A DNA stretch of 64,000 bases from assembly GCA_018821925.1 (NCBI GenBank), contig JAHJLF010000043.1, positions 1,599 to 65,598 on the forward strand. The letters are read 5' to 3'. The notes under the pieces are model-generated. The model made no database searches. It saw only the letters and a list, made by a program, of their open reading frames with translations, and was not told where the DNA came from. Numbering within the stretch: the first letter of the stretch is position 1; each line of letters starts with the position of its first letter. The translations under genes and the position numbers were made by a program. The DNA comes from Candidatus Edwardsbacteria bacterium (GTDB lineage: Bacteria > Edwardsbacteria > AC1 > EtOH8). Below are positions 8,681-39,631 of the stretch, one piece after another.

Positions 8681-8691
8681 TATGGTTTGAA

Positions 8692-11025: not shown

Positions 11026-11043
11026 AGAGGGTGAAATAGCTTA

Positions 11044-11125
11044 TTAAAATAATTGACAAGGCTCCATCAGTTATGTAAAATACTCAAATGAAGTTTTATT
11101 ACTACTCCAGGATTGGCGTTGGAAA
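11044..11125 (+). repeat. Left copy of an ~80 bp imperfect direct repeat flanking the AT-rich gene cassette
   Basis: ~80% identical to 11821-11902. Shared core 'CAGTTATGTAAAATAC'. Confidence 0.55.
11053..11081 (+). promoter_or_regulatory. Near-consensus sigma70-type promoter (TTGACA-17 nt-TAAAAT) upstream of the AT-rich cassette gene
   Basis: TTGACA at 11053-11058, 17-nt spacer, TAAAAT at 11076-11081. Lies within the first copy of an ~80 bp direct repeat. Confidence 0.5.
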
Positions 11126-11297
11126 TATCATTACGATGGCAAACCATTTGGTGCAAGGGGTTGCGCTGGAATGCAAGGCTATACAAATAGTTGGAATCTT
11201 TGCCATGGATTAATTAGAATAGGATCAAATATTCCTTTATTTGTCAGACCTTTTATTTTCCCTAACAATAATAAATAAAAGAAGAGGTGTCTTCGAA

Positions 11298-11786
11298 ATG
11301 AGAAAACATTTTCAAATTATTTGTATGTTGTTTATTTGCTGTTACTTTTATTCAACCGCAAATGCTAATATGATTAAAGAATTAAAAGATATTACACAAT
11401 TTATTTATGTAATTCAAAATATTGCAATGCATGATAGCGCCTGTACAATAAAGAATTTAAATTATTTGTTTGGACCACATAACGAATATGAAATAGATGC
11501 ATTGGATGATAGTTTAAATGTTAAAGAGATAAATAAAAGAATATCGAATCCAAAATGCAAATCGGTATATCTTTTGAATTTTAAAAAACATTATTGGAAT
11601 ATAATCAATCCGAGTGAGTTAGTATGGACCAAAATGGAGCGAGAAGTCGGTTCTGTTGTTTTCTATACAATAACGTTTATTAACCAAAAAAGGCAGACTG
11701 TTAAATATGTTATTGGTAAAGAACCTGTCGATGGTTATTATGTTCTAAGTCACCTATCATTAAATGATAAGGAATTATTAGAATGA
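11298..11786 (+). CDS. Hypothetical secreted or membrane-anchored protein in an AT-rich cassette
   Basis: ORF in a ~30% GC segment. Start chosen at ATG 11298 (MRKHFQIICMLFICCYFYSTANA, signal-peptide-like) with an upstream GAGG. The ORF track extends it to 11241. No family recognised. Confidence 0.4.
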   Translation: MRKHFQIICMLFICCYFYSTANANMIKELKDITQFIYVIQNIAMHDSACTIKNLNYLFGPHNEYEIDALDDSLNVKEINKRISNPKCKSVYLLNFKKHYWNIINPSELVWTKMEREVGSVVFYTITFINQKRQTVKYVIGKEPVDGYYVLSHLSLNDKELLE

Positions 11787-11820
11787 GCAGTATAACAATG
11801 CAACATCCAGGCGGGTGCTT

Positions 11821-11902
11821 TAAAACAATCGACAAAGATTTGACAGTTATGTAAAATACACAAACGAAGTATTATTAGTAAACCACAGGAACCAACGCGG
11901 CA
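11821..11902 (+). repeat. Right copy of the ~80 bp imperfect direct repeat flanking the AT-rich gene cassette
   Basis: Aligns with 11044-11125 (TTAAAAYAATYGACAA...CAGTTATGTAAAATACWCAAAYGAAGTWTTATTA...). Confidence 0.55.
11829..11857 (+). promoter_or_regulatory. Sigma70-type promoter (TCGACA-17 nt-TAAAAT), second copy of the repeated promoter module, upstream of deoC
   Basis: Homologous position in the second ~80 bp repeat. -35 has one mismatch. Confidence 0.4.
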
Positions 11903-12108
11903 TTGCCCTACATAGCGTTATACGCTTGGGGTTTATTATTTTCCATTATTTTGCAAAGACCGCTTGACATAATAGGGACATATATTGTATACCGCTATTG
12001 CATAAATAATTATTAAATTATTCGTGAAGCATAGCAACCCACACACAATTGATTACACAGTGATGAAGAATAGGTGCATGACCCATTAAAAAAACAGAGA
12101 GGGTAATA

Positions 12109-23301: not shown

Positions 23302-23377
23302 GCCGCTGTAGCTCAGTTGGTAGAGCGACGCTCTCGTAAAGCGTAGGTCACCGGTTCGATTCCGGTCAGCGGCTCCA
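23302..23377 (+). tRNA. tRNA-Thr (anticodon CGU)
   Basis: 76 nt cloverleaf folded by hand: acceptor GCCGCTG/CAGCGGC, D-arm GCTC-AGTTGGTA-GAGC, anticodon stem ACGCT/AGCGT with loop CTCGTAA (anticodon CGT), T-arm ACCGG-TTCGATT-CCGGT, encoded CCA. Confidence 0.85.
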
Positions 23378-23457
23378 GAGATGGGGTTAATGGGACGCAG
23401 ATTTACGCAGATTGTTTTGCTTGGTGAGCAAATGTTGTTGCTTTCGTCATCCTGAGT

Positions 23458-24435
23458 ATGACTATCTACCCAACAAGCCGAAGGATCTTTTTAACCACAA
23501 AGAACGCAGAGTCAACTAACAAAACGCAATCAATTTTTCTTAACTTTACTACAATGAAAAAAGTACTTACAAATACATTTTCCAACTATAAAAAAGACGC
23601 TTCCAACTGGATAACACTGGCTGGTGGCGAATATTACCCAGATATTTTAAAAGACGCTTGTCAGCTTTACAAACCTGTTTTAGTTTTATTCGGTCAACTT
23701 GTAAAATCTTCTGAATCATCTTCCCGACTTTTTCTTGAAATTGCCGATGTTGTCGAACCTTGGATGAGAGTTCAATTACTAAGAGTTTTCAAACGATATG
23801 TTTGCCCTGTTCTTCCTGTTGAAATGACAAAACGAAAAACAAAAGCAACAATGTTTGATAGAGAATTTAAAAGCAAATTCAGACCAATCAACGAAGTTCA
23901 AAGAGCATTTAACAGCCGACCAATTAAAGACGAAGCGCTTTGTGCCTTGCTTTGGGAATACAAGGACAGGGGTAAAAAGGGATACGATTTAACCGAAAGA
24001 TTTTTCGAATTATTCCGCAGCAATTTCAGAGGGCTTCAAATTATTGGACCCGAACGGGCAGGCAGAGATATTTTGATGAAGGAAGTTTTTGAAAGCTATC
24101 CCAACCCAACACGACCTGTTGATTTTGTAATTAAGGATAAGAATAAAATTCTTGCAATAGGTTTGGCAAGATATGATTCAGACCGGGGCGGTGCACAAGA
24201 AGACGACAGAACCGGCGGATATTCAAATTGTGCAAACGAATTTCTTGGATTCGCCAAGAAAAATAAATTAAACACCAAATTAATTTTTGTAAACGATGGG
24301 CCAGGACTTTTGCTCGGTTCAATGTGGAATGACTATTCAGCTTTAGAAAAAAGCTGGAAAGGGAAAATAATGGTGTTGACTCTGAGAATGGTGGCTGAGA
24401 GAATCACCGAAGAATGGTTAAACTCAAAATTGTAA
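23458..24435 (+). CDS. Hypothetical protein, candidate restriction endonuclease partner of the downstream DNA methyltransferase
   Basis: 325 aa ORF in a low-GC (~38%) segment directly 3' of the tRNA. 5-nt gap to the methyltransferase gene. No family recognised. Alternative start ATG 23554 (MKKVL...). Confidence 0.35.
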   Translation: MTIYPTSRRIFLTTKNAESTNKTQSIFLNFTTMKKVLTNTFSNYKKDASNWITLAGGEYYPDILKDACQLYKPVLVLFGQLVKSSESSSRLFLEIADVVEPWMRVQLLRVFKRYVCPVLPVEMTKRKTKATMFDREFKSKFRPINEVQRAFNSRPIKDEALCALLWEYKDRGKKGYDLTERFFELFRSNFRGLQIIGPERAGRDILMKEVFESYPNPTRPVDFVIKDKNKILAIGLARYDSDRGGAQEDDRTGGYSNCANEFLGFAKKNKLNTKLIFVNDGPGLLLGSMWNDYSALEKSWKGKIMVLTLRMVAERITEEWLNSKL

Positions 24436-24439
24436 CAAA

Positions 24440-25783
24440 ATGGCAACAGGCAACCCAAAAACAAAATGGAATGGAGAGTTGCACACAAGCAACTCCAACA
24501 ACGAACAGTTTTCATTTCGCCCTGTTTGGCAAAATGGAAATTCTGCAAACCGTTTGTATTTTGGCGACAATGTTTCAGTAATGAAGGATTTGGTGAAAGA
24601 CAAAACGGTGAAAGGAGAAATCCGCCTCATATACATTGACCCGCCTTACGCTACCAACAGCGTTTTTCAAACACGAAAACAAAAAGACGCTTACACCGAC
24701 CTGTTGACAGGTGAACACTATATTGAGTTTATGCGTGAACGATTGTTGCTGATGAAGGAATTATTGGCGACGGATGGTTCAATTTATGTTCATCTTGACA
24801 ACAAAATGGTTTTCCATGTAAAAGTTTTGATGGACGAAATTTTTGGTGCTGCAAATTTTCGCAGCATGATTACAAGGAAAAAGTGCAAGTCAAAGAACTT
24901 TACAAAAAATTCCTTTGGAAATATTTGTGATTACATTTTGTTTTATACAAAATCCGCTAACGCAGTTTGGCACAAGCAATTTAATGAATGGACTGACGAG
25001 AAAATTCTGATCGAGTATCCGCTCATTGAGAAAGAAACTGGCAGACGGCACAAGCGAGTACCTATTCATGCCCCCGGAACAAGAAACGGAACTACAGGAA
25101 AGATGTGGAAAGGAATGATGCCGCCTGAAGGTAAACATTGGCAATTCACACCCGACAAGTTGGACGAGTTGGACCGAAAAGGTGAACTCCACTGGAGTAA
25201 AAATGGCAACCCAAGACGCAAAATTTATTTAGACGAAAGCAACGGAATCGCTTTGCAAGATATTTGGCTTGACTACTTAGATGCAAATAATCAAAACACT
25301 CAAACCACAGGTTATCCGACAGAAAAAAATATTGAGATGTTGAAACGAATCATTCTTGCTTCTTCAAATAAAGGAGATCTGGTTATGGACTGTTTTGCGG
25401 GTTCCGGAACAACTTTGGTTGCAGCAGACGAACTTCACCGTAACTGGATTGGCGTTGACATCGGCAGCGAATCAATGAAAGTAATTTTGAATCGTTTCCA
25501 AAATGGAACTCAAACTTTAGACGACCACATCAATGACGAGAAACCAAAAACCAAATCAAAGAAGATTGATTTGTTTTCTGACCAAGAGGAAGAAGAAAAG
25601 CTACCTCAACAATCAAAAAAAGTGCAGCAACATTTAGTAAGCGACTTTTCAATTTTAGTGAACGGAAATTATTCAGGGATAGAGTTTCAAGTGCCAACGC
25701 AGTTGAACTCACATTTTGCTCTGCCCAACGCAAAGGCAAACACCGCAAAGCAAAAAAAGCCTGCACTGAGCCCAGCACCTTGA
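24440..25783 (+). CDS. Site-specific DNA methyltransferase (N6-adenine/N4-cytosine, beta-class)
   Basis: 447 aa. Motif IV 'IYIDPPYAT' precedes motif I 'DCFAGSGTT' (beta-class order). Low-GC. Confidence 0.8.
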   Translation: MATGNPKTKWNGELHTSNSNNEQFSFRPVWQNGNSANRLYFGDNVSVMKDLVKDKTVKGEIRLIYIDPPYATNSVFQTRKQKDAYTDLLTGEHYIEFMRERLLLMKELLATDGSIYVHLDNKMVFHVKVLMDEIFGAANFRSMITRKKCKSKNFTKNSFGNICDYILFYTKSANAVWHKQFNEWTDEKILIEYPLIEKETGRRHKRVPIHAPGTRNGTTGKMWKGMMPPEGKHWQFTPDKLDELDRKGELHWSKNGNPRRKIYLDESNGIALQDIWLDYLDANNQNTQTTGYPTEKNIEMLKRIILASSNKGDLVMDCFAGSGTTLVAADELHRNWIGVDIGSESMKVILNRFQNGTQTLDDHINDEKPKTKSKKIDLFSDQEEEEKLPQQSKKVQQHLVSDFSILVNGNYSGIEFQVPTQLNSHFALPNAKANTAKQKKPALSPAP

Positions 25784-25812
25784 ATGGCTGTCGGAGTGAA
25801 GCAATCCCGGTT

Positions 25813-25863
25813 GTCATTCCCGCCCCGCATCAAGTGCGGGATAAACTCCGGCGGGAATCCAGG
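25813..25863. repeat. REP/MITE-like nested hairpin repeat (same family as 13757-13966)
   Basis: GTCATTCCCGCC-[CCGCATCAAGTGCGG]-ATAAACTCC-GGCGGGAATCCAGG. Outer arms ATTCCCGCC/GGCGGGAAT enclose an inner 6-bp hairpin. Confidence 0.6.
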
Positions 25864-25963
25864 CTTAATGGGACACGGACGCCGTCGTCCAAAGCCGTCT
25901 TTTATAGTAGCAGACTATGGCGCCGGACGATTTACACGGATTATTTCAAAGCATTTATAAAAG

Positions 25964-28774
25964 ATGACCAAACAGGAAGCCAAACAACAGATACAAAAGC
26001 TGGTTGAAAAGTACCAGCGGATAGCGGAAGCGGGGAAGGTGAAAACCTACAACGAGGCCCAAACCCGCAACGAATTTATTGAACCGCTGTTTAGCTTCTT
26101 GGGCTGGGACATGCGGAACCTGTCAACCGATAATGAGGTGACCACCGAGGAAAATGTCTCCGGCGGCAGGGTTGATTTGGCTTTCCGTTTCAATAATATT
26201 CCGGTGATGTTTCTGGAAGCCAAGGCCATGAAGGTTGACCTGGACGAGTGGAAATGGGCCGAGCAGGCCATAAACTACAGTTGGAATAAAAGCGTTACTT
26301 GGGCGGTGCTGACCGATTTTGAAAGCATCAAGGTATTCAACGCCGAAATACCGCCTAAAAGCATTTCGCAAAACCTGTTCATTGAATTAAAGTGCGCTGA
26401 TTTTGTCGCCCGGTTTGACCAGTTGTGGCTGCTGTCCAAGGAAAGCTTTGAAACCAAACTGTTGGACAAGGAAGCGGTAAAGTGGGGCAAGCTTACCCAG
26501 CGCAAACAGGTGGGGGTAAAGCTTTTCGAGGACCTGATGTCCTGGCGCATCCTGCTGACCAAGGAGTTCAAAAAGCAGAACGACCTTAGTCAGGAGGAAT
26601 TGGACGAGGGCGTTCAGAGGGTGCTTGACAGGCTTATCTTCATCCGCACCGCCGAGGATCGGGAAATAGAGCAAAACGTTCTGATGGGCATTTTGCGAAG
26701 CGGGAAAGCCGGGCTTTACCGCCAGTTGGCAAAAGAGTTCCGGGATTTTGACGATGGCTTTAATTCCAAGCTGTTCGCACCGCACTACTGCGAAGAATGG
26801 AAAGCAGATGATAAGGTCATCGCCGAGGTCATAAGCGGCATCTACGAAACAAGAGACGGCTACCGATACGATTTTTCGGCCATCTCCTCCGATGTGCTGG
26901 GCGGAATTTACGAGCAGTATCTGGGTTATGTCCAGGGACGGAAAAGCGAAGAGAAGCAGAAATCCCAAAGAAAAGCCCAGGGCATATATTATACGCCGAA
27001 GTATATCGTTGATTACATTGTAAAAGAGGCGCTGGGCGAGGCGCTGAAAAACGCCAAACCCAAGGACATTTCCAAAATAAAGGTGCTGGACCCGGCCTGC
27101 GGCTCCGGCTCGTTCTTGACTGCGGCTTATGATGAGATTCTGGGGAAGGTGGCGAACCCCAATTTGTTTACCAAATTTGATATTTTGAAAGACAATATCT
27201 ACGGGGTTGACTTGGACGCCCAGGCGGTGGAGATAGCCCAACTGAATCTGTTGCTAAAGGTTTTAACCCAGAAGACCAAACTGCCATCGTTACAGCATAA
27301 TTTAAGTTCTGGCAATTCGCTGATTTCCGAAGGCGACCCAAAATACAAGCCGTTCAATTTTGAAACCGAATTCAAAGAAGTATCTGCACATGGTGGTTTT
27401 GATGTAATCATCGGTAACCCGCCATATATTAAGGAATATACAAACCGATCAGCTTTTGACGCCGTGCATGACAATCCTTATTACCAAGGTAAAATGGATA
27501 TTTGGACACTCTTTGCCTGTCGCGCTATAGATTTGCTAAAAGACGGCGGCTATTTCAGCTTCATTGCACCTAATAATTGGCTCACTAACGCCGGTGCGCG
27601 TATTTTTAGAAACAAGATTTTAACAGAAGGGCAGATTACAAAATTCATAGATTTTGGCGATTTTAAGGTTTTCAAAGATGCCGGTATACAAACGATGATT
27701 TTTGTGTTTCAGAAAGGGAAGCCAAAGAAAAGGTATCAGACATGTTATGCAAAAATTGTAGACAAAAATATTGGAGAAGGCGCAGTTAATTTATTGTTGC
27801 AGTCAAACCTTAAAGCAGGCAATAGTGGAATTACAAAATTTAACGCGACGATTAACCCAAGGCAACTTATAGATAAAAATATCGTATTTTCTAACCAGAC
27901 AAATGACGAAATATTGAATAAAATTGAAGCCAAGAAAAACTTTGAGCTTACTGAGAAAGAAGTGGCGCAGGGCATTGTTTATCCGCAAGATTTTTTAAAT
28001 AAAGCTAATCAAATCAAGTTGGGGGCTAATTTTATTGTCGGTGAAGGGATTTTTGGGTTAACAAACAAAGAAAAAGAAAATCTACATCTGACAAAAGAAG
28101 AGAAAAGTTTAATCAGACCGTATTTCACTACTGAACAGTTAGGCAGATATTATTCTAACCCCCAAAATACTCTTTGGCTTATTTATACGGATTCAAAGTT
28201 CAAAAACCCCCATGAAATGAAGCCATATCCAAACATAAAGGCTCACCTGGATAAGTTCAAAGGTGTAATTACATCAGACAACAAACCTTATGGCCTGCAC
28301 AGATCCCGAGACGAGAAATTTTTTGTGGGGGTGAAAATCATAGTGCAAAGGAAATGCACCAACAGACCAATTTTTACTTATACTGATTTTGATTGTTATG
28401 TTTCGGCCACTTTTTATGTCATAAAAACTATAAGATTAAACCAAATATATTTAACAGGCTTACTTAATTCAAGCTTGATGAAATACTGGCTTAAAAATAA
28501 AGGCAAAATGCAGGGAAGCAATTATCAAATTGATAAAGAGCCATTGTTGAATTTGCCGTTAATAAAACCCGACGAAAAGGCCCAAGAAAAAATCGCCTTA
28601 AGTGTTGATAAGATAATGAAACTGTATCAAGATTATCGTAAAACTTCGGCGAATACTGATAAATGGCATGCACTCAAAAATGATATAGAAAAACTTGATC
28701 ACGAAATTGACCATGCGGTTTATAAACTTTATGGCTTAACCGATGAAGAAATTAAAGCAATTGAAGGACAATAA
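25964..28774 (+). CDS. Type IIG restriction-modification enzyme (MmeI-like fused endonuclease-methyltransferase-TRD)
   Basis: 936 aa. N-terminal PD-(D/E)xK-like nuclease ('NEAQTRNEFIEPLF..LGWD', 'GGRVDLAF...FLEAKA'), gamma-class MTase motifs I 'LDPACGSGSFL' and IV 'IIGNPPY'. Long AT-rich C-terminal region consistent with a target-recognition domain. Confidence 0.75.
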   Translation: MTKQEAKQQIQKLVEKYQRIAEAGKVKTYNEAQTRNEFIEPLFSFLGWDMRNLSTDNEVTTEENVSGGRVDLAFRFNNIPVMFLEAKAMKVDLDEWKWAEQAINYSWNKSVTWAVLTDFESIKVFNAEIPPKSISQNLFIELKCADFVARFDQLWLLSKESFETKLLDKEAVKWGKLTQRKQVGVKLFEDLMSWRILLTKEFKKQNDLSQEELDEGVQRVLDRLIFIRTAEDREIEQNVLMGILRSGKAGLYRQLAKEFRDFDDGFNSKLFAPHYCEEWKADDKVIAEVISGIYETRDGYRYDFSAISSDVLGGIYEQYLGYVQGRKSEEKQKSQRKAQGIYYTPKYIVDYIVKEALGEALKNAKPKDISKIKVLDPACGSGSFLTAAYDEILGKVANPNLFTKFDILKDNIYGVDLDAQAVEIAQLNLLLKVLTQKTKLPSLQHNLSSGNSLISEGDPKYKPFNFETEFKEVSAHGGFDVIIGNPPYIKEYTNRSAFDAVHDNPYYQGKMDIWTLFACRAIDLLKDGGYFSFIAPNNWLTNAGARIFRNKILTEGQITKFIDFGDFKVFKDAGIQTMIFVFQKGKPKKRYQTCYAKIVDKNIGEGAVNLLLQSNLKAGNSGITKFNATINPRQLIDKNIVFSNQTNDEILNKIEAKKNFELTEKEVAQGIVYPQDFLNKANQIKLGANFIVGEGIFGLTNKEKENLHLTKEEKSLIRPYFTTEQLGRYYSNPQNTLWLIYTDSKFKNPHEMKPYPNIKAHLDKFKGVITSDNKPYGLHRSRDEKFFVGVKIIVQRKCTNRPIFTYTDFDCYVSATFYVIKTIRLNQIYLTGLLNSSLMKYWLKNKGKMQGSNYQIDKEPLLNLPLIKPDEKAQEKIALSVDKIMKLYQDYRKTSANTDKWHALKNDIEKLDHEIDHAVYKLYGLTDEEIKAIEGQ

Positions 28775-28778
28775 AACC

Positions 28779-28805
28779 AAGGTGCGGGTTATACGCACCT
28801 TTCAG
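28779..28805 (+). terminator. Weak stem-loop (possible terminator) after the type IIG gene
   Basis: AAGGTGCG-GGTTATA-CGCACCTT hairpin, but only 2-3 trailing T. Confidence 0.3.
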
Positions 28806-28873
28806 CCAAAACTAAAATATACGCAATTTGTAAATTCAATAGTTAGCCGCAACGCCACGACTAATGTGACCAT

Positions 28874-29869
28874 ATGATGACGAATGATCCAATAGGTTCT
28901 GTTGAGTATGCCAGCAGTCTTCTGAGGCCCATTCGGCTCTCTTTTGATATTCTTTTTGATGACGACACGATTCATTATTGTCTATTTGATCTTCCTATGG
29001 CTGAACAACCTTGGTATGGTTATCATCAGTCCAAGTTATACGGTTCCGGGATGCTTCCCCTTTCAGATGTCGCAGGCAAAGAGAACGCCACACCAGAGGC
29101 TGTGGCTGAGGCGCTATGCCGAGAAATCGGAATCACCAAGTCTTTCACAATTGGCAATGTTCGAAGAAACTACGTCGATCTTCACATACCAGAATTTGTT
29201 AGACGTAGTCTCATCCGTCCAAATCATCCCGTCGAATCTCCATCCGCTCAACGTGCAAGAGCGTACATCCTGTTCGCAGACCTCCGTGGATTTTCTACGT
29301 GGTCGCTTTCAGTTAATCCCGAACAGGTTACGCGGATCTTCGAGGTAATTTCTGAACGTGTCGTCCAAATGCTCATTGACTATCACTATGATTACTGGAA
29401 GTTGCTTGGCGATGGCATTATGTTGGTTTGGGAAGTAACCGATGATGAAACAACCACGGCTGATAATGCCATTGGAGCAGCTTTCGAGTTGCACAAGAAG
29501 TACTGGTACTATTGGAAAGAAGATGAGGCTCACCTGCCAGAAGGTTTCGGCATAGCAATCTGTGGTGGAGATGTCGTCAAATACGCATCAGCGACCTTTT
29601 TCGAGTCAGTAGTAATCACGGACTATCTCGGACCCGTTGTGAACCTTGCCGCGAGGCTTCAATCTATAGCGAAAGCTGGTCAAGTTCTGGTCAACAAACA
29701 AGTGAGCAAGAAATCAAGGTTTAACGGGTACTCTTTTGAAAACGTATCTGACCGTCTGAAAAATGAACTTGATAACTTAAAGGGGATTCCAGATTCGGAA
29801 CGAGTCATTTTTCAAGTTATTCATAAGTACTTTGGCCCAGATTGGCTGAACTTCTGCCATACACGATAA
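28874..29869 (+). CDS. Stand-alone class III nucleotidyl (adenylyl/guanylyl-type) cyclase-domain protein with unrecognised ~135 aa N-terminal domain
   Basis: 331 aa. C-terminal ~190 aa carry cyclase motifs: metal-binding Asp blocks 'ILFADLRGFSTWS' and 'KLLGDGIMLVWEV', 'GIAICGGDVV', and the transition-state Asn/Arg motif 'VNLAARLQ'. Confidence 0.6.
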   Translation: MMTNDPIGSVEYASSLLRPIRLSFDILFDDDTIHYCLFDLPMAEQPWYGYHQSKLYGSGMLPLSDVAGKENATPEAVAEALCREIGITKSFTIGNVRRNYVDLHIPEFVRRSLIRPNHPVESPSAQRARAYILFADLRGFSTWSLSVNPEQVTRIFEVISERVVQMLIDYHYDYWKLLGDGIMLVWEVTDDETTTADNAIGAAFELHKKYWYYWKEDEAHLPEGFGIAICGGDVVKYASATFFESVVITDYLGPVVNLAARLQSIAKAGQVLVNKQVSKKSRFNGYSFENVSDRLKNELDNLKGIPDSERVIFQVIHKYFGPDWLNFCHTR

Positions 29870-30071
29870 CGTGGCGCTGCGGCCAACACACCGCACCACG
29901 ACGCACCCCCATTTGAAATGGATTAAAGTGGACGCCCAATGGTTTTTGGTGCGGTTTGATAAGCGCAGTGTGTCGGAGCTATTTTTTGTAGCACCAAAAC
30001 CCACTGCGTGGTGTGGTGAGACGTTGGGCAAGGCTAAAATAAACCAACACTTAACAAAAGGAGTTAATAAA

Positions 30072-30725
30072 ATGAAAAAGTGCTTCTTAGCCACAATCAT
30101 TTTTCTTTTGCCTTTAGTGCTTCACGCCGATACATTATTTCTATCAAATGGGAAGTCTTACGAGGGTACGGTAACTAAATGGGATGCAGGTAAAATTAGT
30201 TTTGTTATGAAAGACGCGCCGCTATCTTCAGCCTGGGAAGTGCCATCTGAAAGGATCGATAAAATTGTTATTGATGACGGTGCCACGTATTTGCCTTTTA
30301 ATAAGTATTGGTTGAACCAAAACGACACAATTTATGCCGCCAAACTTAAAGAAGTATTATCGAGACCATCTGACAATATTACTGCGGAAGATTTAAAATT
30401 GCTCGCGTTATTGAAATGCTATCGCGGTGCGGAGGTGGTAAATATTTCTTCTGCTCAAACTACTCACCCCGCCGAAATAAAGACGATAACCTCTATTCCG
30501 TCTTCAATAAAAAAAGACAAAGCGCCTTATGTGTTTGTAAGCGCCGTTTCTTTAATCCTTGCTTATGATTTCTTTTCGGATGCGGGCGATCTTAGAGATG
30601 GAGCTAATTCTTTGCCGGATGGGGAAGATAAAGATAGATTAACCTCGGAAGCGACTGGCCATACTGTGCGTGGGGTTCTTACGCTTGCTATAGGTATCTT
30701 ATCTTTTATTGTTGCCCAACAGTAG
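30072..30725 (+). CDS. Hypothetical secreted protein with C-terminal membrane segments
   Basis: 217 aa from ATG 30072 preceded by AAGGAG. N-terminal signal peptide 'MKKCFLATIIFLLPLVLHA'. Hydrophobic C-terminus ('YVFVSAVSLILAYDFF...VLTLAIGILSFIVA'). The track ORF starts at 29871 but lacks an RBS. Confidence 0.4.
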   Translation: MKKCFLATIIFLLPLVLHADTLFLSNGKSYEGTVTKWDAGKISFVMKDAPLSSAWEVPSERIDKIVIDDGATYLPFNKYWLNQNDTIYAAKLKEVLSRPSDNITAEDLKLLALLKCYRGAEVVNISSAQTTHPAEIKTITSIPSSIKKDKAPYVFVSAVSLILAYDFFSDAGDLRDGANSLPDGEDKDRLTSEATGHTVRGVLTLAIGILSFIVAQQ

Positions 30726-30744
30726 TATAATTGCAAACGCGGCC

Positions 30745-30945
30745 CCACTAAACAAAACAAAATCATTTAACTTCAGGAAATATATCGTGTCTTCTCACGA
30801 TAAATTGATGATCAGCGTGGCCGGGATCCGGGGCGTGGTCGGAACCAGCCTGACCCCCGAGCTGGCCCTGAAATTCGCCGCGGCCTTCGGCACCTTCGTC
30901 GGAGGCGGCCCGGTGGCGCTGGCGCGCGATTCCCGCACCGCAAAC
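30745..30945 (+). repeat. Upstream copy of a ~200 bp direct repeat (glmM promoter-proximal region plus first ~50 codons)
   Basis: Near-identical to 32850-33056 from 'AAATCAT..ATCATTTAACTT' through 'GGCACCTTCGTCGG'. Similarity decays after ~30945. Confidence 0.6.
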
Positions 30946-30993
30946 CCGCCGCCCGTTAGGCGCAATTGCACCCGGACGAATGTAAATGAATAA
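30787..30993 (+). pseudogene. Truncated duplicate of the 5' end of glmM (phosphoglucosamine mutase)
   Basis: ~160 nt nearly identical to 32898-33056 (encoding 'SSHDKLMISVAGIRGVVGTSLTPELALKFAAAFGTFVG') plus ~45 nt of matching upstream sequence. Frame diverges and stops after ~67 codons. Confidence 0.5.
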
Positions 30994-32707
30994 AAATACC
31001 CTCACAAAATACCCACGCATAGTCAACCTTCTCATGGGAACAGCATTTATTTTTTTAGTGGCAACTATCGCCCATTTTCTTTTTTCACATCTTGGTTTCA
31101 ATCCCACCGACGACGGTTTCATTTTAGCGGGAAGCAGGCGAATATTAGACGGTCAAATCCCTCATCGTGACTTTATATCAATTCGTCCTGCGGGTTCCCA
31201 TTTTCTTCACATACCATTTGTTCTCTTTGGGGGCGATTATGTCTTTCTGGTCTCTCGATATTTTGTATGGATTCAATTTGCTTCTATCGCGTGGATATGG
31301 ACTGTTGTTACAGCCCGGGCCTTTAAAATTTTCTCCAATTGGGTGGAGAAGTTCGCTATTGCGCTGGTTGTGTTCTCTTTCTCGGCCCATTATTCCCCTA
31401 TCATGGCATGGCACACTATTGATGCTTTATTTCTGACTTCGGTAGGCATAATATTATGTCATAAGCAATCCTGGTTGGCGAAACTGTTTGGTTACATATT
31501 TATAGGTATGGCACCGTTGTGTAGACTGAACTTTTTACCAATGATTCCCGTGGTGATCTTGCTCTTAAACGACCGGCGACAAAAGCGTTTTTGGCTTACA
31601 GGAAGCATTCCACTGGCAGTTTACGCGGTTTATTTGGTAATCAATGGAGCGGCATCGGATGCGATTCTGCAATTAAGCGCCTATACAAATGTATTATCTG
31701 TGGGTGTAATGAGCTATGTGAAAACCTGGACTGTACCGTGGGGAATATTGACCGGCGCCTTGGCAGCAAGTATGGCATACAATGCTCTCGATTTTAAGCG
31801 CCTATCAAATACCGCCACTTGGCTAAGACTGCTTGGGCGTTTGATATTGTTTGGAATCCCTTTGGCAGCAGCTTGGTCTTTAGCCGGCGGAAGATATCTT
31901 TGGGGAGCATCTTTTGGTATTTTCGGCGCTGTTGTTGGAGCAACAATATATTTTATCGCTAAAGAGCAGAAACTATCACGGCATATAAGATGTGGATTGC
32001 TAATTATTTGCCTTGCTTGGTGCACATCCATCTCCTTAGGATATCCCACCCCTGCTTTGGCCACAGGTCCCTTGATTCTATTTCTAATAGCATGCGGGCA
32101 GTCCTCTTATCGGGTACCAAGTGGAGACAAAGTTTCCGGCAAATCTAAATGTTCGCTCATTTATCGGTTTCTTCACCCCGAAGGTTTGCGAAAGCTCGTC
32201 AATGTTCAAGTAATTTTATTAGCAATAATAAGCCTGGCGGCGTTTGGGATAGCGAGAGAAAATTATATCTACAGAGAACAGTCGGCATCCAACCTAAACC
32301 AAAATCTGGATGGCGTGCTCCCGGGAGCGAGGCTGATCAAAACGAACGGCAACACTTATAACTTTCTTATAGACTTGAAAGATGCCAAGGATATAGCGAA
32401 GAGCGAAGGGAAAAATTATTGTATCATCCCGGATGTGGCTGCTAATTGGGTAAGAAGTTCACAATGTAATCCATTATCTATTGACTGGCCACAAAGTACG
32501 GAATTGGGGAAGCAAGAATTGACAGACCGCGTCATAAGGGACATGGAAGCATATCGGGGAAGAACCATTATCATTGTACAAAAGTATGAAGCTTATTCAT
32601 TGGCTTCAGGTTTTATTCCGCTATCCGATTCATATATAGTTGTTCACTTCGTACGGTCAAATTTTAGTAAGACAGGGGAAACCAAGTTTTTTGAATTGTA
32701 TGAATAG
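30986..32707 (+). CDS. Polytopic membrane protein, GT-C-fold glycosyltransferase-like
   Basis: 573 aa, ~10 predicted TM helices. Acidic first-loop motif 'NPTDDGFILAGSRRILDGQ'. C-terminal ~190 aa soluble domain. Lower GC than flanks. Assignment by architecture only. Confidence 0.4.
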   Translation: MNKNTLTKYPRIVNLLMGTAFIFLVATIAHFLFSHLGFNPTDDGFILAGSRRILDGQIPHRDFISIRPAGSHFLHIPFVLFGGDYVFLVSRYFVWIQFASIAWIWTVVTARAFKIFSNWVEKFAIALVVFSFSAHYSPIMAWHTIDALFLTSVGIILCHKQSWLAKLFGYIFIGMAPLCRLNFLPMIPVVILLLNDRRQKRFWLTGSIPLAVYAVYLVINGAASDAILQLSAYTNVLSVGVMSYVKTWTVPWGILTGALAASMAYNALDFKRLSNTATWLRLLGRLILFGIPLAAAWSLAGGRYLWGASFGIFGAVVGATIYFIAKEQKLSRHIRCGLLIICLAWCTSISLGYPTPALATGPLILFLIACGQSSYRVPSGDKVSGKSKCSLIYRFLHPEGLRKLVNVQVILLAIISLAAFGIARENYIYREQSASNLNQNLDGVLPGARLIKTNGNTYNFLIDLKDAKDIAKSEGKNYCIIPDVAANWVRSSQCNPLSIDWPQSTELGKQELTDRVIRDMEAYRGRTIIIVQKYEAYSLASGFIPLSDSYIVVHFVRSNFSKTGETKFFELYE

Positions 32708-32897
32708 ATTCATACCTATGCTTTATTTAGAGTCTGTAACTTCATATAACGCGGACTATAAGGCTGCGCTACTTCTCGCCTTCGCCCAAATCCCTCGCTC
32801 CGTTCGGGACTACGTATGTCCGCAAACGTTAGTTGCCTTTAAAAACACAACTACACAAACAAAGAAATCATAATCATTTAACTTAAGGTAATATATT

Positions 32898-34253
32898 TTG
32901 TCTTCTCACGATAAATTGATGATCAGCGTGGCCGGGATCCGGGGGGTGGTGGGAACCAGCCTGACCCCCGAGCTGGCCCTGAAATTCGCCGCGGCCTTCG
33001 GCACCTTCGTCGGTGCCGGACCAGTGGTGCTGGGGCGCGACTCCCGCCTGTCCGGCCCGGTGATGGAAATGACGGTGGAGGCCGGTCTGCGCTCGGTGGG
33101 ATGCGAGGTCATCAAGATCGGCATCGTTCCCACCCCCACCGTCCAGCTGATGACCAGACTTTTAAAAGCCAGGGGGGGCATCGCCATCACCGCCAGCCAT
33201 AACCCCTCCCAGTGGAACGCCCTGAAATTCGTCTCCGGCCAGGGGTTGTTTTTAGATAAAGGCCAGGGCGAAAAGGTCATTGCCATTTTCCATTCCGGCA
33301 AATTTGCCTATAAAAAATATGACCGGCTGGGGGGGGGCGGAGAATATCCCAACGCCATCAGTGATCATGTGGCCAGAATACTTAAATTGTCATTTCTGGA
33401 TATTCCGGCCATCAGAAGAAAAAAGTTCAAGGTAGTAGTGGACACCTGCCACGGGGCCGGCGGGCCGATATTCAGCCGGCTGCTTAAAGAATTGGGCTGC
33501 CGGGTCATCTCCTTGCACAACGAAACAAATGGAAAGTTCTCGCGGCCCATCGAGCCGCAGGCCAAGAATCTGGGCGAACTGGAGAAGGCTGTCATCGCTC
33601 ACCGGGCCGATATCGGCTTTGCCACCGACGCCGATGTGGACCGGCTGTCCCTGGTCTCCGATAAGGGCAAAGCGATAGGCGAGGAATATTCCCTGGCCCT
33701 GGCCGCCCGGTTCATGTTCTTGCATTTTAAAACCAAGGCCGTCACCAATCTCTCCACCAGCCGGATGGTAGACGAGGTGGCCGGCCAATTTAAAACCAGC
33801 GTCATCCGCACCCCGGTGGGCGAGGCCAACGTGGTCGGCGCCATGAAAAAGCACCGGGCTCTTATCGGCGGCGAGGGCAACGGTGGGATAATCATCCCCG
33901 AACTCAACTACGCCCGGGATGCCGCTGCCGGGATAGCCTTGATATTGCAGATGTTGACCGAAGAGAATCTTCCATTATCACAGATCGCCGAGAAAATGCC
34001 CAGATATCACATGATCAAAACCACCTTGACGATAAAGGATCCCAAAAGGTTTCTGGTCAAGACGACTAAAATATTCTCCAACTGCAAAACAGATAAAAGG
34101 GACGGCCTTAAATATATCTGGCCTGATGCCTGGGTACATATCAGGGCTTCCGGCACCGAGCCGATTGTGCGGGTGATCGCCGAAGCGCGGGAAGAGAAGA
34201 AGGCCAGAAAACTGGTGAATGATGTAACCCGGTTAATTAAAATTGACACTTAG
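32898..34253 (+). CDS. glmM: Phosphoglucosamine mutase (alpha-D-phosphohexomutase family)
   Basis: 451 aa. 'VAGIRGVVG' N-terminus, phosphoserine loop 'ITASHNPSQWNALKF', metal-binding 'FATDADVDR'. Two genes upstream of glmS. The track start is TTG 32898; ATG 32919 (MISVAGIRG) is an alternative. Confidence 0.75.
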   Translation: MSSHDKLMISVAGIRGVVGTSLTPELALKFAAAFGTFVGAGPVVLGRDSRLSGPVMEMTVEAGLRSVGCEVIKIGIVPTPTVQLMTRLLKARGGIAITASHNPSQWNALKFVSGQGLFLDKGQGEKVIAIFHSGKFAYKKYDRLGGGGEYPNAISDHVARILKLSFLDIPAIRRKKFKVVVDTCHGAGGPIFSRLLKELGCRVISLHNETNGKFSRPIEPQAKNLGELEKAVIAHRADIGFATDADVDRLSLVSDKGKAIGEEYSLALAARFMFLHFKTKAVTNLSTSRMVDEVAGQFKTSVIRTPVGEANVVGAMKKHRALIGGEGNGGIIIPELNYARDAAAGIALILQMLTEENLPLSQIAEKMPRYHMIKTTLTIKDPKRFLVKTTKIFSNCKTDKRDGLKYIWPDAWVHIRASGTEPIVRVIAEAREEKKARKLVNDVTRLIKIDT

Positions 34254-36745: not shown

Positions 36746-39631
36746 ATGAACGTCAAGAAAAAAACTTACAGCCGTTATCTGGGGGAGGAGACCTCTGCCA
36801 AACTTATTGAAGGAAATCTTTCCCAAAACGATAAGGAACAGGCATTGCGCCGTCTGGCTGAGCTGACCAGGGTCTTTTCGTCCTATCTGCCGGGTGGTAT
36901 CAGGAGGCATGCTCAAAAGCTTCATTCCGGGGCCAAGGTGGAACAGGCCCTGCTGCTGGCCGATGTCACCGGCTTCACGGTGCTGTCCGAGCGGCTGTCC
37001 CGCATCGGCCGGGAGGGGGCCGAGGAGGTCACCGGCATCATCAACAGCTATTTTGCCCCGCTGATAAAGATCGTCCACAACTACGGCGGCGACGTTGTCT
37101 ACTTCGGCGGCGACGCTTTCAGCGCCGGCTTCGAGACGGTGGAGGGCGAGCCCTCGCCCAGCCATCTCCGGGCTTTGCAGGCAGCTTATGAGATGCAGGA
37201 GCTGGTCAAGAATTTTACCGAGATCAAGACCTCGGCCGGGGCCTTCCCCATCAGCCTGCATCTGGCCCTGCATCTCGGCCCCACCGAGATCTTTAGCGTA
37301 GGCCGGAAAGAGACCGACCTGGAATATTTCATGGCCGGACGGGTCACCAACTATGCCTCCCAGCTGGAGGACCTATCCTCCGGAGCAGAGCTATTGATCA
37401 GCCGGGAGCTTTATAATAAAGCCAAGGGTAAGATAACGGCAGAGCCGGCCCAGAGCGATACTTATAAGCTTGTCAAAGTGAACGAAAAGGTTGGCCATTT
37501 AGCAGAGGGCGGCCAGGAGGAGGCAGAGGATATCGAGCGGTCCATCGAACATCTGGAGGCGATCCGTCCTTATTTCTCAAGCTGGCTGTCACAAAGGATC
37601 ATGGCCGATCCCAAGTCCGGAGGCGTTGCCGGGGAGCATCGCCGGGTGACCATGCTGTTCCTGAATGTCTGGGGGATGGATTTCGACGATGATCAACATG
37701 CCGTTTCCAAGGCCCAGAATTATTTTTCGGTCCTGCAGGAGGTGGTTGAGAGATATGGCGGGATAGTAAACAAGGTGGATTTCAGCCCCCAGGGCCACAA
37801 GGTGCTGATCCTGTTCGGGGCTCATATCGCCCACGAGAATGACGAGGAGCGGGCCCTGTTGTGCGCTCTGGAGATGCTGGGCCGCGAGGAGTTCGGTTAT
37901 GGCGGGGTCAAACAGAGGTTCGGGGTCAACGGCGGTTATGTCTACGCCGGGACGGTCGGCTCGGCCCTGCGCCGCGAGTTCACCGTGATGGGCGACGAGG
38001 TCAACCTGGCGGCCCGCCTGATGTCATCGGCCGGCGAACAGGAGCTGCTGGCCACCGCCGCCATCCAGAGGAAGAACTCCGGAAAATTCGGATTCAAAAG
38101 CCTGGGCGAGAAGGAATTCAAGGGCAAGAAACACCCCATCACCATATATCAGGTGAGCAAAAAAGATGAATCCGGCGATGATGTTTTTGCCAAGTGGATG
38201 ACGGAATCCAAAGCCATGGTGGGCCGCCAGAAGGAAAAGGAATTGTTGAACAGCGCCGTGGAGAAAGGCATCTCCGGGCAGGGCCAGATAATTTCGGTGG
38301 TGGGCGAGGCCGGCATCGGAAAATCCAGGCTGTCCCGGGAGCTGATCCAGAACTGGGCCGAACGGGGATATTCCTTTTTCGTGGGCAACTGCCAGTCCTA
38401 CGGCGCGGCCATCTCCTACCTGCCCTGGGCCGATTTACTGAAGACCTATTTGGGCATCAAGGAGGCCGATTCCATGGAGGCGAAAACATCCCGGATCCAC
38501 AAAATGCTGGAGATCATCGACCCGGTCCTCAAGGATTGGTCCCCGATCATCGGCGAGGTGGTGGGAGTGTCCATGCCGGAGAGCGAGCTGACCAAGTCGC
38601 TGGACGCCAAACTCAGACAGCAGAGATTATTCGATCTGGTGCTGGACATCTTCAGTTGGGGGGCGGCCCAGGAGCCGCTGCTGCTGATCATCGAAGATCT
38701 GCACTGGGCCGACGGAGCCTCCCTGGGACTGCTGAACTACGTAGCCCGTAATATCGGCGACAAACCCATAGTGTTGTGTATGGTCTATCGGCCAATCGAG
38801 GCCAAGCACGAATTCGCCGGCAAGGAATATCACAGCCAGATGACCCTTAAAGAGCTGAGCCAGGAGGAGAGCCTGGAACTGGTGAAGACCATGCTGAACA
38901 TCGAAGGGATGCCGCCGGAGCTGGAGCAGCTGATCCTGAAGAAGTCCCAGGGCAACCCCTTTTTCGTGGAGGAAGTGGTCAAGTCGCTGATCGAGCAGAA
39001 GGTGGTCGCCGAGAAGGACGGCCAGTGGCAGGTGGTGACCACCGACATAGCCAAGATCAACATACCCGACACCGTTCAGGGGGTGATCATGAGCCGTATC
39101 GACCGCCTGCCGATCGAGACCCGGGAGGTGCTGCAGATATCCTCGGTGATCGGGCGCGAGTTCGACTATCATATTTTGCAGGCCATCTACCCAAAAAAAA
39201 TAGAGATCAATCCCCACCTCAACAGTCTGAGGGGCCTGGACCTGGTGCTTACCGAGCAGGAGGGCAATTATTACTTCAAGCACATCATGACCCAGGAGGT
39301 GGCTTACGACAGCCTGTCGTTCAGCCGCCGCCGGGAGCTGCACAACAACATCGGCGATCACCTGGAGCTCAGCAACGAGAGCAAGATAGAAGAGGTGCTG
39401 GAGCTGCTGTCGCACCATTATTTCCATGCCCAGAACTGGGAGCCGGCCTTCTTCTATTCGGTGGAGGCCGGGGACAAGGCCAAGAAGGCCTATGCCAACC
39501 AGGAGGCCCTGGCCCATTACGATCGGGCGCTGGAGGTGTTCGACAAGATGGTGGAGGCCGGGATGCTGCCCGAGCTGACCCGCCGCATCCAGGAGGAGCT
39601 GAAGCAAAAGGAAGTGGAGTCGGCCAAATAG
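36746..39631 (+). CDS. Multidomain signalling protein: tandem class III nucleotidyl cyclase domains + AAA(+)/STAND ATPase + TPR
   Basis: 961 aa. Cyclase motifs 'LLADVTGFTVLSE...GGDAFSAGF' and 'MLFLNVWGMDF...GDEVNLAARLMSSAG'. Walker A 'GEAGIGKSRL'. C-terminal TPR-like helices. Confidence 0.75.
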   Translation: MNVKKKTYSRYLGEETSAKLIEGNLSQNDKEQALRRLAELTRVFSSYLPGGIRRHAQKLHSGAKVEQALLLADVTGFTVLSERLSRIGREGAEEVTGIINSYFAPLIKIVHNYGGDVVYFGGDAFSAGFETVEGEPSPSHLRALQAAYEMQELVKNFTEIKTSAGAFPISLHLALHLGPTEIFSVGRKETDLEYFMAGRVTNYASQLEDLSSGAELLISRELYNKAKGKITAEPAQSDTYKLVKVNEKVGHLAEGGQEEAEDIERSIEHLEAIRPYFSSWLSQRIMADPKSGGVAGEHRRVTMLFLNVWGMDFDDDQHAVSKAQNYFSVLQEVVERYGGIVNKVDFSPQGHKVLILFGAHIAHENDEERALLCALEMLGREEFGYGGVKQRFGVNGGYVYAGTVGSALRREFTVMGDEVNLAARLMSSAGEQELLATAAIQRKNSGKFGFKSLGEKEFKGKKHPITIYQVSKKDESGDDVFAKWMTESKAMVGRQKEKELLNSAVEKGISGQGQIISVVGEAGIGKSRLSRELIQNWAERGYSFFVGNCQSYGAAISYLPWADLLKTYLGIKEADSMEAKTSRIHKMLEIIDPVLKDWSPIIGEVVGVSMPESELTKSLDAKLRQQRLFDLVLDIFSWGAAQEPLLLIIEDLHWADGASLGLLNYVARNIGDKPIVLCMVYRPIEAKHEFAGKEYHSQMTLKELSQEESLELVKTMLNIEGMPPELEQLILKKSQGNPFFVEEVVKSLIEQKVVAEKDGQWQVVTTDIAKINIPDTVQGVIMSRIDRLPIETREVLQISSVIGREFDYHILQAIYPKKIEINPHLNSLRGLDLVLTEQEGNYYFKHIMTQEVAYDSLSFSRRRELHNNIGDHLELSNESKIEEVLELLSHHYFHAQNWEPAFFYSVEAGDKAKKAYANQEALAHYDRALEVFDKMVEAGMLPELTRRIQEELKQKEVESAK

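Follow-up and report, generated by a model that had tools for sequence, protein, structure and literature searches.

A candidate single-gene defense cyclase on an integron-type cassette in a restriction-modification island of Candidatus Edwardsbacteria

Does the nucleotidyl cyclase gene found beside two restriction-modification systems in Candidatus Edwardsbacteria signal to the small membrane protein encoded after it, as had been predicted from the sequence, or does it act without a partner? We analyzed a 64,000-nt stretch (assembly GCA_018821925.1, contig JAHJLF010000043.1, positions 1,599 to 65,598 of the forward strand), hereafter called the window. The GC content was 0.35 to 0.50 over 23 to 33 kb of the window versus 0.55 to 0.60 in the flanks. 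Together with the tRNA gene and the two restriction-modification systems upstream of the cyclase, this profile agrees with the low-GC, restriction-modification-rich island that had been proposed. The island and its surroundings contain the following features.

23302 to 23377, + strand: tRNA-Thr(CGT), marking the left boundary of the low-GC island
23458 to 25783, + strand: type II restriction-modification pair, a 325-aa putative restriction enzyme and a 447-aa N6/N4 methyltransferase
25964 to 28774, + strand: type IIG restriction-modification enzyme, 936 aa, the upstream neighbor of the cyclase
28775 to 28841, + strand: shortened remnant of the spacer/attC after the type IIG gene
30751 to 30937, + strand: duplicated fragment of the glmM 5′ end (intact glmM, 32898 to 34253)

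The 325-aa putative restriction enzyme had a weak match to DpnII. The type IIG gene is shared with a sister genome (L062) at 88% nucleotide identity, and the L062 counterpart of the spacer at 28775 to 28841 is about 190 nt long, running from ACCCAAC to GTTGGGC.

Catalytic core and N-terminal domain

28874 to 29869, + strand: class III nucleotidyl cyclase open reading frame (ORF), 331 aa
28874 to 29239, + strand: family-specific N-terminal domain, residues 1 to ~122
29240 to 29869, + strand: cyclase homology domain

The 331-aa protein contains the motifs FADLRGFS, LLGDGIM, and VNLAARL matches the Pfam family Guanylate_cyc (PF00211; 38.5 bits, profile E = 1e-9, above the gathering score), and has the cyclase-homology fold. 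The cyclase domain presents the metal-binding residues D136 and D180, the base-pocket residues K176 and D250, the transition-state residues N257 and R261, and an LKG motif around G304. D136, D180, K176, D250, and R261 were invariant among 34 homologues, in which N257 was kept in at least 90%, and the catalytic residues aligned with those of the class III cyclases CyaB of P. aeruginosa (PDB 3R5G) and CyaC of Spirulina (1WC0), although sequence similarity to such cyclases is low (20% identity). The intact class III core of the original prediction is thus borne out on careful alignment, and judging from its residues, the protein is a stand-alone class III nucleotidyl cyclase with the full catalytic set.

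The K176/D250 pair is analogous to K938/D1018 of mammalian adenylyl cyclase, and a small residue, Gly181, directly follows the second metal-binding Asp, D180. Because of this pair and the small glycine, the substrate is probably ATP and the product cAMP, although the Lys is also retained in some uridylate cyclases (PMC11224242). The best PADLOC match of the cyclase was the PycC model PDLC00734, a weak one (42.7 bits, E = 9e-12) that left the N-terminal 180 positions of the model uncovered. In structure, the protein is nearer to canonical cyclases than to PycC (structures 7R65, 8JSF, 8JSZ, and 6YII). Like the PycC pyrimidine cyclases of Pycsar, reportedly described by Tal and colleagues in 2021, it is a small cytosolic class III cyclase in a defense island; however, its pocket appears to be of the purine type, with G181 at the position of a bulky Phe in clade D PycC, and no effector with a cyclic-nucleotide-binding domain adjoins it. 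A Pycsar-type effector gene, combining cyclic-nucleotide binding with a transmembrane, TIR, or other killing domain, was found neither in the 217-aa neighbor nor as a conserved neighbor in the 20 loci examined. The cyclase is therefore not canonical Pycsar, as had been suspected.

The N-terminal domain, predicted to consist of four beta strands, a helix, and a further beta strand, matched no known family or fold, including the usual sensor domains, and has no conserved catalytic-type residues. It had been reported as unassignable at ~135 aa, and so it proved, with the boundary placed here at ~122 residues. This domain of ~120 aa is new and confined to this cyclase architecture, whereas known class III relatives carry GAF, HAMP, REC, CHASE, or similar domains. 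In locus L071, which has a truncated variant of 233 aa, the ORF upstream lacks the N-terminal domain.

Boundaries of the cyclase unit and its attC site

28842 to 28848, + strand: R′ core site GTTAGCC, the left cassette junction, with crossover at G/TT
28843 to 30023, + strand: integron-type gene cassette, 1,181 bp (31-nt leader, cyclase ORF, and attC)
29874 to 30029, + strand: attC recombination site, R″ GGCCAAC and R′ GTTGGGC
30024 to 30729, + strand: separate unit with a 217-aa lineage-specific envelope protein (ORF, 30072 to 30725), outside the cyclase cassette

The same cassette was found in an unrelated attC array (L024) at 97.5% nucleotide identity, with a pN/pS of 0.11 between the two cyclase copies, and the comparison with L024 and L062 located both of its ends. 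In a three-way alignment, the window follows L062 up to AATAG/TT and L024 from GTTAGCC on; at the other end, blastn and alignment showed the match to L062 to resume from TTGGGC at 30024. Both junctions, 28842/28843 and 30023/30024, lie at the G/TT of GTTRRRY core sites. At the left junction, the sequence GTTAGCCGCAACGCC has three exact copies in L024 and one in the window.

The 202-nt spacer 3′ of the cyclase had been described as structured, and it does fold more stably than shuffled sequence (z = −2.3), with no family match in Rfam. The spacer is an attC site rather than a link within an operon. R″ GGCCAAC deviates from RYYYAAC at one position and R′ GTTGGGC fits GTTRRRY; an outer stem of 9 bp and an inner stem of 11 to 12 bp, with an asymmetric internal loop, enclose a variable center (dG of the DNA fold, −27.7). 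The site is homologous to the attC sites of L024 along its full length (nhmmer E = 3e-46), and comparison of three family members gave a consensus structure with 14 covarying pairs. L024 itself has five attC sites of this family, all on the + strand and each directly 3′ of a co-oriented ORF. One of its cassette proteins, of 243 aa, looks cyclase-like in FLDISGF and SDSG, but neither profile comparison nor the PDB supported that assignment.

The stretch from 28843 to 30023 is a single-gene integron-type mobile cassette that was shuffled into the restriction-modification island, a setting that distinguishes this cyclase from known class III cyclases; to our knowledge, no cyclase cassette has been described. 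It resembles the cassettes of integrons and of CALINs, which are attC clusters without an integrase, in having an ORF with a short leader and, 3′ of it, an attC with cores of the RYYYAAC/GTTRRRY type, in its exchange at G/TT, in the occurrence of the same cassette in different arrays, and in the restriction-modification, toxin-antitoxin, and defense-candidate cassettes nearby. It differs in that the attC sites are long (150 to 190 nt), the host belongs to an uncultured candidate phylum, and the window holds one complete attC plus remnants. In addition, no integron platform (intI, attI, Pc) was found in the available sequence. A tblastn search with IntI1 gave no hit at E <= 1e-3, either in the 64-kb window or in 64 loci. 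At best, the array is thus a CALIN-like remnant, and the missing intI would fit a CALIN as well as an integrase located elsewhere or beyond the contig.

Core motifs at the expected positions are suggestive, at most, of attC sites in four other cyclase loci (L004, L005, L029, and L036), because two home-made generic attC-scoring scripts gave no separation from noise, missing or mispairing the window site itself, and minimum free energy folding of these four flanks gave no clean hairpins. Carriage by mobile elements found no support: viral contigs scanned for the 15-mer R′ motif yielded only single chance matches, and no member of the cyclase family turned up in IMG/VR or in phage and plasmid collections.

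Genomic neighborhoods and the possible role of the cyclase

The cyclase has no dedicated partner gene: when neighbors were clustered across 20 loci, no gene was conserved next to it. Of 16 independent contexts, about 11 had surroundings of a defense type and about 5 (L005, L008/L031, L010/L032-34, and L029) were purely housekeeping, in line with the predicted defense-island setting rather than a mainly housekeeping one. The defense-type surroundings comprised restriction-modification enzymes upstream in three loci (the window, L001, and L069), the defense candidates PDC-S45, PDC-S54, and PDC-S01, PemK, HicB, a nucleotidyltransferase gene next to a small ORF, an arrangement typical of toxin-antitoxin pairs, as well as HNH nucleases, a caspase-like protease, and a transposase.

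In L062, the same slot is filled by a PifA homologue (PADLOC PifA, E = 4e-104), and the cyclase is absent. PifA, an abortive-infection protein of the F plasmid, acts in the exclusion of phage T7 and, like the cyclase in our interpretation, is a single-gene system; on the other hand, it is a KAP-family NTPase unrelated to the cyclase, and the link between the two is purely positional. Because the slot holds this anti-phage protein in the sister genome, the cyclase is plausible as a one-gene defense or signaling module. It is also documented that integron cassettes store streamlined genes against phages (bioRxiv 10.1101/2024.07.02.601686).

We therefore favor, with moderate confidence, an autonomous, horizontally shuffled cyclase that probably makes cAMP under the control of its N-terminal domain and that is a candidate single-gene defense module distinct from Pycsar. 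The protein would act as a homodimer converting ATP to cAMP, as its Lys176/Asp250 pair and Gly181 suggest, and the N-terminal domain, presumably nonenzymatic, would gate this activity on a cue, which, because of the location of the gene, would most likely be related to infection. The gene would then serve in one-gene defense or abortive infection, either by flooding the cell with a cyclic nucleotide read by resident receptors or by draining NTPs, although how an effector-less cyclase would stop phage is speculative.

The strongest competitor, which we regard as somewhat unlikely, is an ordinary accessory signaling cyclase whose N-terminal domain responds to metabolism or the environment and whose cAMP feeds the CRP/cyclic-nucleotide network of the host, the defense neighbors simply reflecting the varied accessory genes that cassettes and islands collect. 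Against this stand a family that is rare and patchy across phyla (50 to 57% identity), the exchange with PifA in one cassette slot, the restriction-modification, toxin-antitoxin, or defense-candidate genes in most contexts, and the dissimilarity of the N-terminal domain to the usual sensor domains.

A more specific form of the defense reading is an autonomous, effector-less anti-phage system, in which the N-terminal domain would detect infection and a burst of cyclic nucleotide or a loss of NTPs would arrest the cell. We consider this version rather doubtful. If the cyclase did protect from phage by itself, it would be the first single-protein cyclase defense, and a minimal one-protein format would join CBASS, Pycsar, and type III CRISPR among the forms of cyclic-nucleotide immunity. 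Integron-type cassettes in uncultured phyla would then circulate cyclic-nucleotide immune modules, and the N-terminal domain would be a new candidate infection sensor open to structural study.

Cooperation with the large upstream restriction-modification enzyme, perhaps to back up or regulate restriction, would fit the presence of such a fusion enzyme upstream on the same strand in three independent loci, directly so in the window and in L069 and with an intervening 174-aa ORF in L001. The three enzymes, however, share only 20 to 26% identity with one another, whereas the cyclases reach 52 to 57% identity with that of the window, which speaks against co-inheritance of the two genes. Since L062 keeps the same type IIG enzyme with PifA in place of the cyclase, and restriction-modification genes are absent from most cyclase loci, we judge such cooperation very unlikely.

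The gene downstream of the cyclase does encode, as described, a 217-aa protein with a signal-peptide-like N-terminal segment and hydrophobic C-terminal segments, and its lack of a cyclic-nucleotide-binding or TIR module was confirmed in that it matched nothing in Pfam or PADLOC and has no nucleotide-binding or effector domain; an NCBIfam match to Lepto_7_Nterm was below threshold and was rejected. The proposed pairing with the cyclase did not survive. The protein has only three homologues, all of the same lineage, and is missing from all other cyclase loci examined, so that co-occurrence was conserved in none of the ~16 independent contexts. In L062, where the stretch from 30024 to 30729 recurs at 9953 to 10658 with 89.5% nucleotide identity, the gene follows the PifA-like gene, and in the window it lies beyond G(30023)/TT, where the cyclase cassette ends. 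The 217-aa protein is a lineage-specific envelope protein unrelated to the cyclase. These observations leave a two-gene, Pycsar-like system with this protein as the membrane effector extremely improbable, despite the adjacency of the two genes on one strand, the weak PycC match, and the small membrane proteins that adjoin more distant short cyclases.

Whatever the function of the cyclase, its alternation with PifA in one slot documents cassette exchange in Edwardsbacteria at base-pair resolution, and it supports a view of cassette arrays as interchangeable defense libraries, far outside Vibrio and clinical integrons too.

Layout of the locus and the cassette that carries the cyclase

All of the sequence features listed in the original prediction, which proposed a Pycsar-like pair of cyclase and 217-aa protein in a restriction-modification island, were found in the window. 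The finding is real, but it has to be re-framed: this is not a two-gene Pycsar-like system, and the cyclase is a rare, cassette-borne, stand-alone protein whose N-terminal domain is new and whose slot is one used for swapping defence cassettes.

Features of the cyclase locus (window coordinates unless a locus is named)
23302-23377, tRNA-Thr(CGT)
23458-25783, putative restriction enzyme (weak DpnII match) and N6/N4 methyltransferase, upstream of the cyclase
25964-28774, type IIG restriction-modification enzyme, 936 aa, upstream of the cyclase
28874-29869, + strand, cyclase ORF, 331 aa, with motifs FADLRGFS, LLGDGIM and VNLAARL
202 nt, spacer between the cyclase ORF and the 217-aa ORF
30072-30725, 217-aa ORF, start MKKCFLATIIFLLPLVLHA, with hydrophobic segments at its end
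Sister-genome locus L062 (Candidatus Edwardsbacteria relative), 7520-9685, full-length PifA homologue (KAP NTPase), a cassette between the type IIG restriction-modification gene and the 217-aa gene

The GC content is 0.35-0.50 across 23-33 kb of the window against 0.55-0.60 in the flanks, and 45% in the cyclase gene against 56-59% in core genes. Housekeeping genes border the island: mreC, mreD, PBP2, rodA and lgt at one edge, glmM and glmS at the opposite edge.

A copy of the cyclase that is 97.5% identical lies on another contig, L024, and its similarity to the window starts just 32 nt ahead of the start codon. On L024, ORFs of one orientation form an array, and behind each stands one repeat of a single family, in which the 3′ half (GTTAGCCGCAACGCC) is a near reverse complement of the 5′ half (GCGCTGCGGCTAACA). 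The window spacer at 29874-30029 shows full-length homology to these repeats, and searching with a profile made from three of them gave five sites in L024, always on the + strand and immediately 3′ of an ORF, plus a single site in the window; 119 other loci had none. In the consensus structure, a 9-bp outer stem (GCGGCYAAC paired with GTTRGCCGC) and an 11-bp inner stem are separated by an asymmetric internal loop (2 nt against 5 nt) and enclose a variable centre, with 14 of 46 pairs preserved despite changes on both sides; the window spacer, folded singly as DNA, has a dG of -27.7. The window and L024 repeats have the architecture of integron attC sites, with R′′/R′ (RYYYAAC/GTTRRRY), an unpaired spacer, and L′′/L′. 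The "structured 200-nt spacer" of the original prediction is indeed structured, and its homology to the L024 repeats and its two-stem fold identify it as an attC site.

Cassette junctions were placed by three-way alignments of the window, the sister genome and L024. On the left, the window and the sister genome agree up to AATAG|TT (28842|28843), past which the window continues as L024 does (TTAGCCGCAACGCC...) while the sister genome departs. On the right, the two match again from TTGGGCAAGG (30024), right after the G of GTTGGGC. Both junctions are at the canonical crossover point, and the cassette therefore spans 28843-30023, comprising a 31-nt leader, the ORF and the attC site. The corresponding slot in the sister genome holds a KAP NTPase that matches the PADLOC PifA model nearly end to end (E = 4e-104); PifA is an abortive-infection protein of the F plasmid.

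The window unit shares with integron gene cassettes its attC site, its G|TT junctions and its reuse in another array, but differs in that no integrase platform was found for it: tblastn with an IntI1 query detected no IntI-like recombinase in the window or any locus. The most fitting description of the structure is a CALIN-like remnant or an array with its platform elsewhere. Among loci of other cyclase homologues, core motifs are at the expected positions: L036 has GTTAGGC two nt ahead of its ATG as well as a GCCTAAC that overlaps its stop codon, L029 has GCCTAAC, and L004 and L005 start ATATAACAAGC(G/A)CCTCAAC, which is similar to the repeat of Vibrio cholerae. Neither generic scoring nor folding could confirm attC sites in these four lineages.

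Two copies of the glmM 5′ end, together with about 45-80 nt upstream of it, are present in the window (30751-30937 and 32819-33005), and a third, in the sister genome (L062 9802-9948), is joined to the beginning of the 217-aa unit. An R′-core-like motif, AAACGTTAG(T/C), immediately precedes the glmM upstream region in both genomes. The arrangement suggests that recombination has occurred repeatedly beside glmM, at attC or secondary sites. The two window copies bracket the gene of a 573-aa polytopic membrane protein (30986-32707, 43% GC), located between the glmM fragment and intact glmM, which has no match in Pfam, PADLOC or NCBIfam and is missing at the corresponding position of the sister genome. 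Palindromic repeats (GTCATTCCCGCC...GGCGGGAATCCAGGC) lie in island intergenic regions (window 25800-25870, L062 ~10720-10870), as does a recurring TTAATGGGAC motif, one of them at 23388, just past the tRNA. A second sharp low-GC patch (31% GC) at 11000-12000 holds a 181-aa signal-peptide-like ORF (11241-11786), which lies between a 777-aa membrane protein and the following ORF.

Catalytic domain and N-terminal domain

The cyclase belongs to the class III cyclase superfamily, as tested on its defining sequence features, with Pfam Guanylate_cyc matching residues 130-291 at 38.5 bits (cut-off 21.9). A search of 5.8 billion proteins gave ~50 full-length homologues (311-343 aa, 42-87% identity) from uncultured Ignavibacteria, Bacteroidota, delta-proteobacterial and Spirochaetales MAGs; no family member was found in IMG/VR viral contigs, phage records or plasmids. 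Across 34 aligned homologues, D136, D180, K176, D250 and R261 are invariant and N257 nearly so. D136 and D180 are the metal-binding aspartates and N257 and R261 the transition-state pair of the intact catalytic core. K176 is four residues ahead of D180 and D250 seven ahead of N257, positions that, judged from CyaB and CyaC alignments, correspond to those of the Lys/Asp pair that specifies adenine in canonical adenylyl cyclases. The protein is most likely an adenylyl cyclase. The AlphaFold2 model, based on the homologue alignment, is confident (pLDDT 92, pTM 0.84). Relative to the copy of 97.5% nucleotide identity, 18 codons differ synonymously and 7 non-synonymously (pN/pS ~0.11), and the protein is therefore under purifying selection. 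We conclude that it is probably a functional class III cyclase.

The top PADLOC match is the PycC model PDLC00734 (42.7 bits, E = 9e-12), which is not stronger than the generic Pfam model. In clade D uridylate cyclases a bulky Phe lines the pocket, F109 of AnPycC (PMC11224242), whereas the window cyclase would have there Gly181, the invariant residue following D180, the two positions being equated by motif analogy, not alignment. Assignment to Pycsar is rejected: an adjacent effector with a cyclic-nucleotide-binding domain, the defining feature of Pycsar, was looked for and is absent, in line with the earlier view that this was not canonical Pycsar, and the pocket residues look purine-type.

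The N-terminal domain, which could not be assigned before, is new and private to this cyclase family. Residues 1 to ~120 form a confident separate fold (pLDDT 88) of four beta strands, a helix and a long beta strand, with no Pfam match in 24 of 24 family members tested and none among PDB sequences. A profile search of 1.84 billion representative proteins returned only 14 matches, all of them the N-domain-plus-cyclase architecture or pieces of such proteins. Because the conserved positions (L22, F24, P41, W47, S53, N95, L103 and P106) are mostly structural and the family alignment has no conserved acidic, His or Cys constellation, we infer that the domain is probably a regulatory or sensor module, not an enzyme.

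The proposed partner and the neighbourhoods of homologues

The 217-aa protein has no Pfam or PADLOC match, and its sole NCBIfam match is sub-threshold, to a leptospiral N-terminal motif. It has three homologues in the whole database, the single named one from a Candidatus Edwardsbacteria MAG. In the sister genome (L061-L063), whose core genes are 91-95% nucleotide-identical to those of the window, an 85% identical orthologue lies downstream of glmS, after a 721-aa KAP NTPase and the type IIG enzyme that the window also has; the 331-aa cyclase is absent. When ORFs were called in 20 cyclase-homologue loci and all neighbours clustered, recurrence of any neighbour family was confined to closely related genomes and none of the loci had the 217-aa protein, with further loci concurring. 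With so few homologues, a cyclase-free sister locus and no occurrence at other cyclase loci, the proposed pair is unsupported.

We surveyed about 16 independent cyclase contexts. Three loci have a large restriction-modification fusion enzyme upstream, immediately so in the window and L069 and with a 174-aa ORF between at L001; these enzymes are 20-26% identical mutually, whereas the cyclases there are 52-57% identical to that of the window, and the enzyme is therefore not co-inherited with the cyclase. PADLOC defence candidates near homologues were PDC-S45 (L024), PDC-S54 (L001) and PDC-S01 (L030). Genes of toxin-antitoxin type were found at L004 (PemK and an NTP_transf_2 gene with a small adjoining ORF), L035 (HicB) and L038 (an NTP_transf_2-like gene, clustering with that of L004, and an HNH nuclease resembling PDC-M68A). 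A caspase-like protease is fixed upstream of the cyclase in one lineage (L036, L065-68), and a DDE transposase is present at L027. About five contexts are purely housekeeping (L005, L008/L031, L010/L032-34 and L029). The main rival reading, that of an ordinary accessory signalling cyclase, is somewhat unlikely.

Cyclase copies are frameshift-split at L028 (5896-6954) and L035 (489-1276), and a family member at L071 (6001-6702) is truncated to the cyclase domain and abutted by an HNH-containing ORF. Split and truncated copies suggest that the gene frequently decays or is disrupted.

Possible function

The analysis establishes a mobile single-gene cassette encoding an intact cyclase under purifying selection, with a private N-domain and no conserved partner, in a defence-type neighbourhood where the slot is exchanged with a single-gene system already known for abortive infection. 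Compact anti-phage systems, restriction-modification systems and toxin-antitoxin modules have been documented as abundant in integron cassettes (bioRxiv 10.1101/2024.07.02.601686), and a defence role of the cyclase is therefore reasonable but not proven. The cyclase would act as a homodimer producing cAMP, its N-terminal domain would gate its activity in response to an infection-related trigger, and the output would be read by resident cyclic-nucleotide receptors or work via nucleotide depletion. The specific proposal of an effector-less, single-protein cyclase defence is doubtful.

A 961-aa core-genome protein is encoded right after glmS (36746-39631), and its sister-genome orthologue is annotated Guanylate_cyc and AAA_16 (95% nucleotide identity across the region); the host therefore already possesses cyclic-nucleotide signalling. 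In the L024 array, a 243-aa protein (2885-3616) has motifs (FVAFLDISGF, VSDSGIL and IYGNAYVQA) that recall the nucleotidyl-cyclase palm, and its candidacy as a cyclase received no support from Pfam, PADLOC, profile comparison or a PDB search. The nearest cyclase-domain-only relatives (~240 aa, 36-42% identical; L040, L042, L045, L046, L047 and L049) lie in the conserved gene order rmuC, cyclase, 155-179-aa membrane protein, 62-65-aa ORF and ~1,100-aa ORF (e.g., L046 5350-6491), and at L041 (577-2239) an 8xMP (PF24838) membrane protein is upstream. These relatives may form a distinct module of a cyclase and a small membrane protein.
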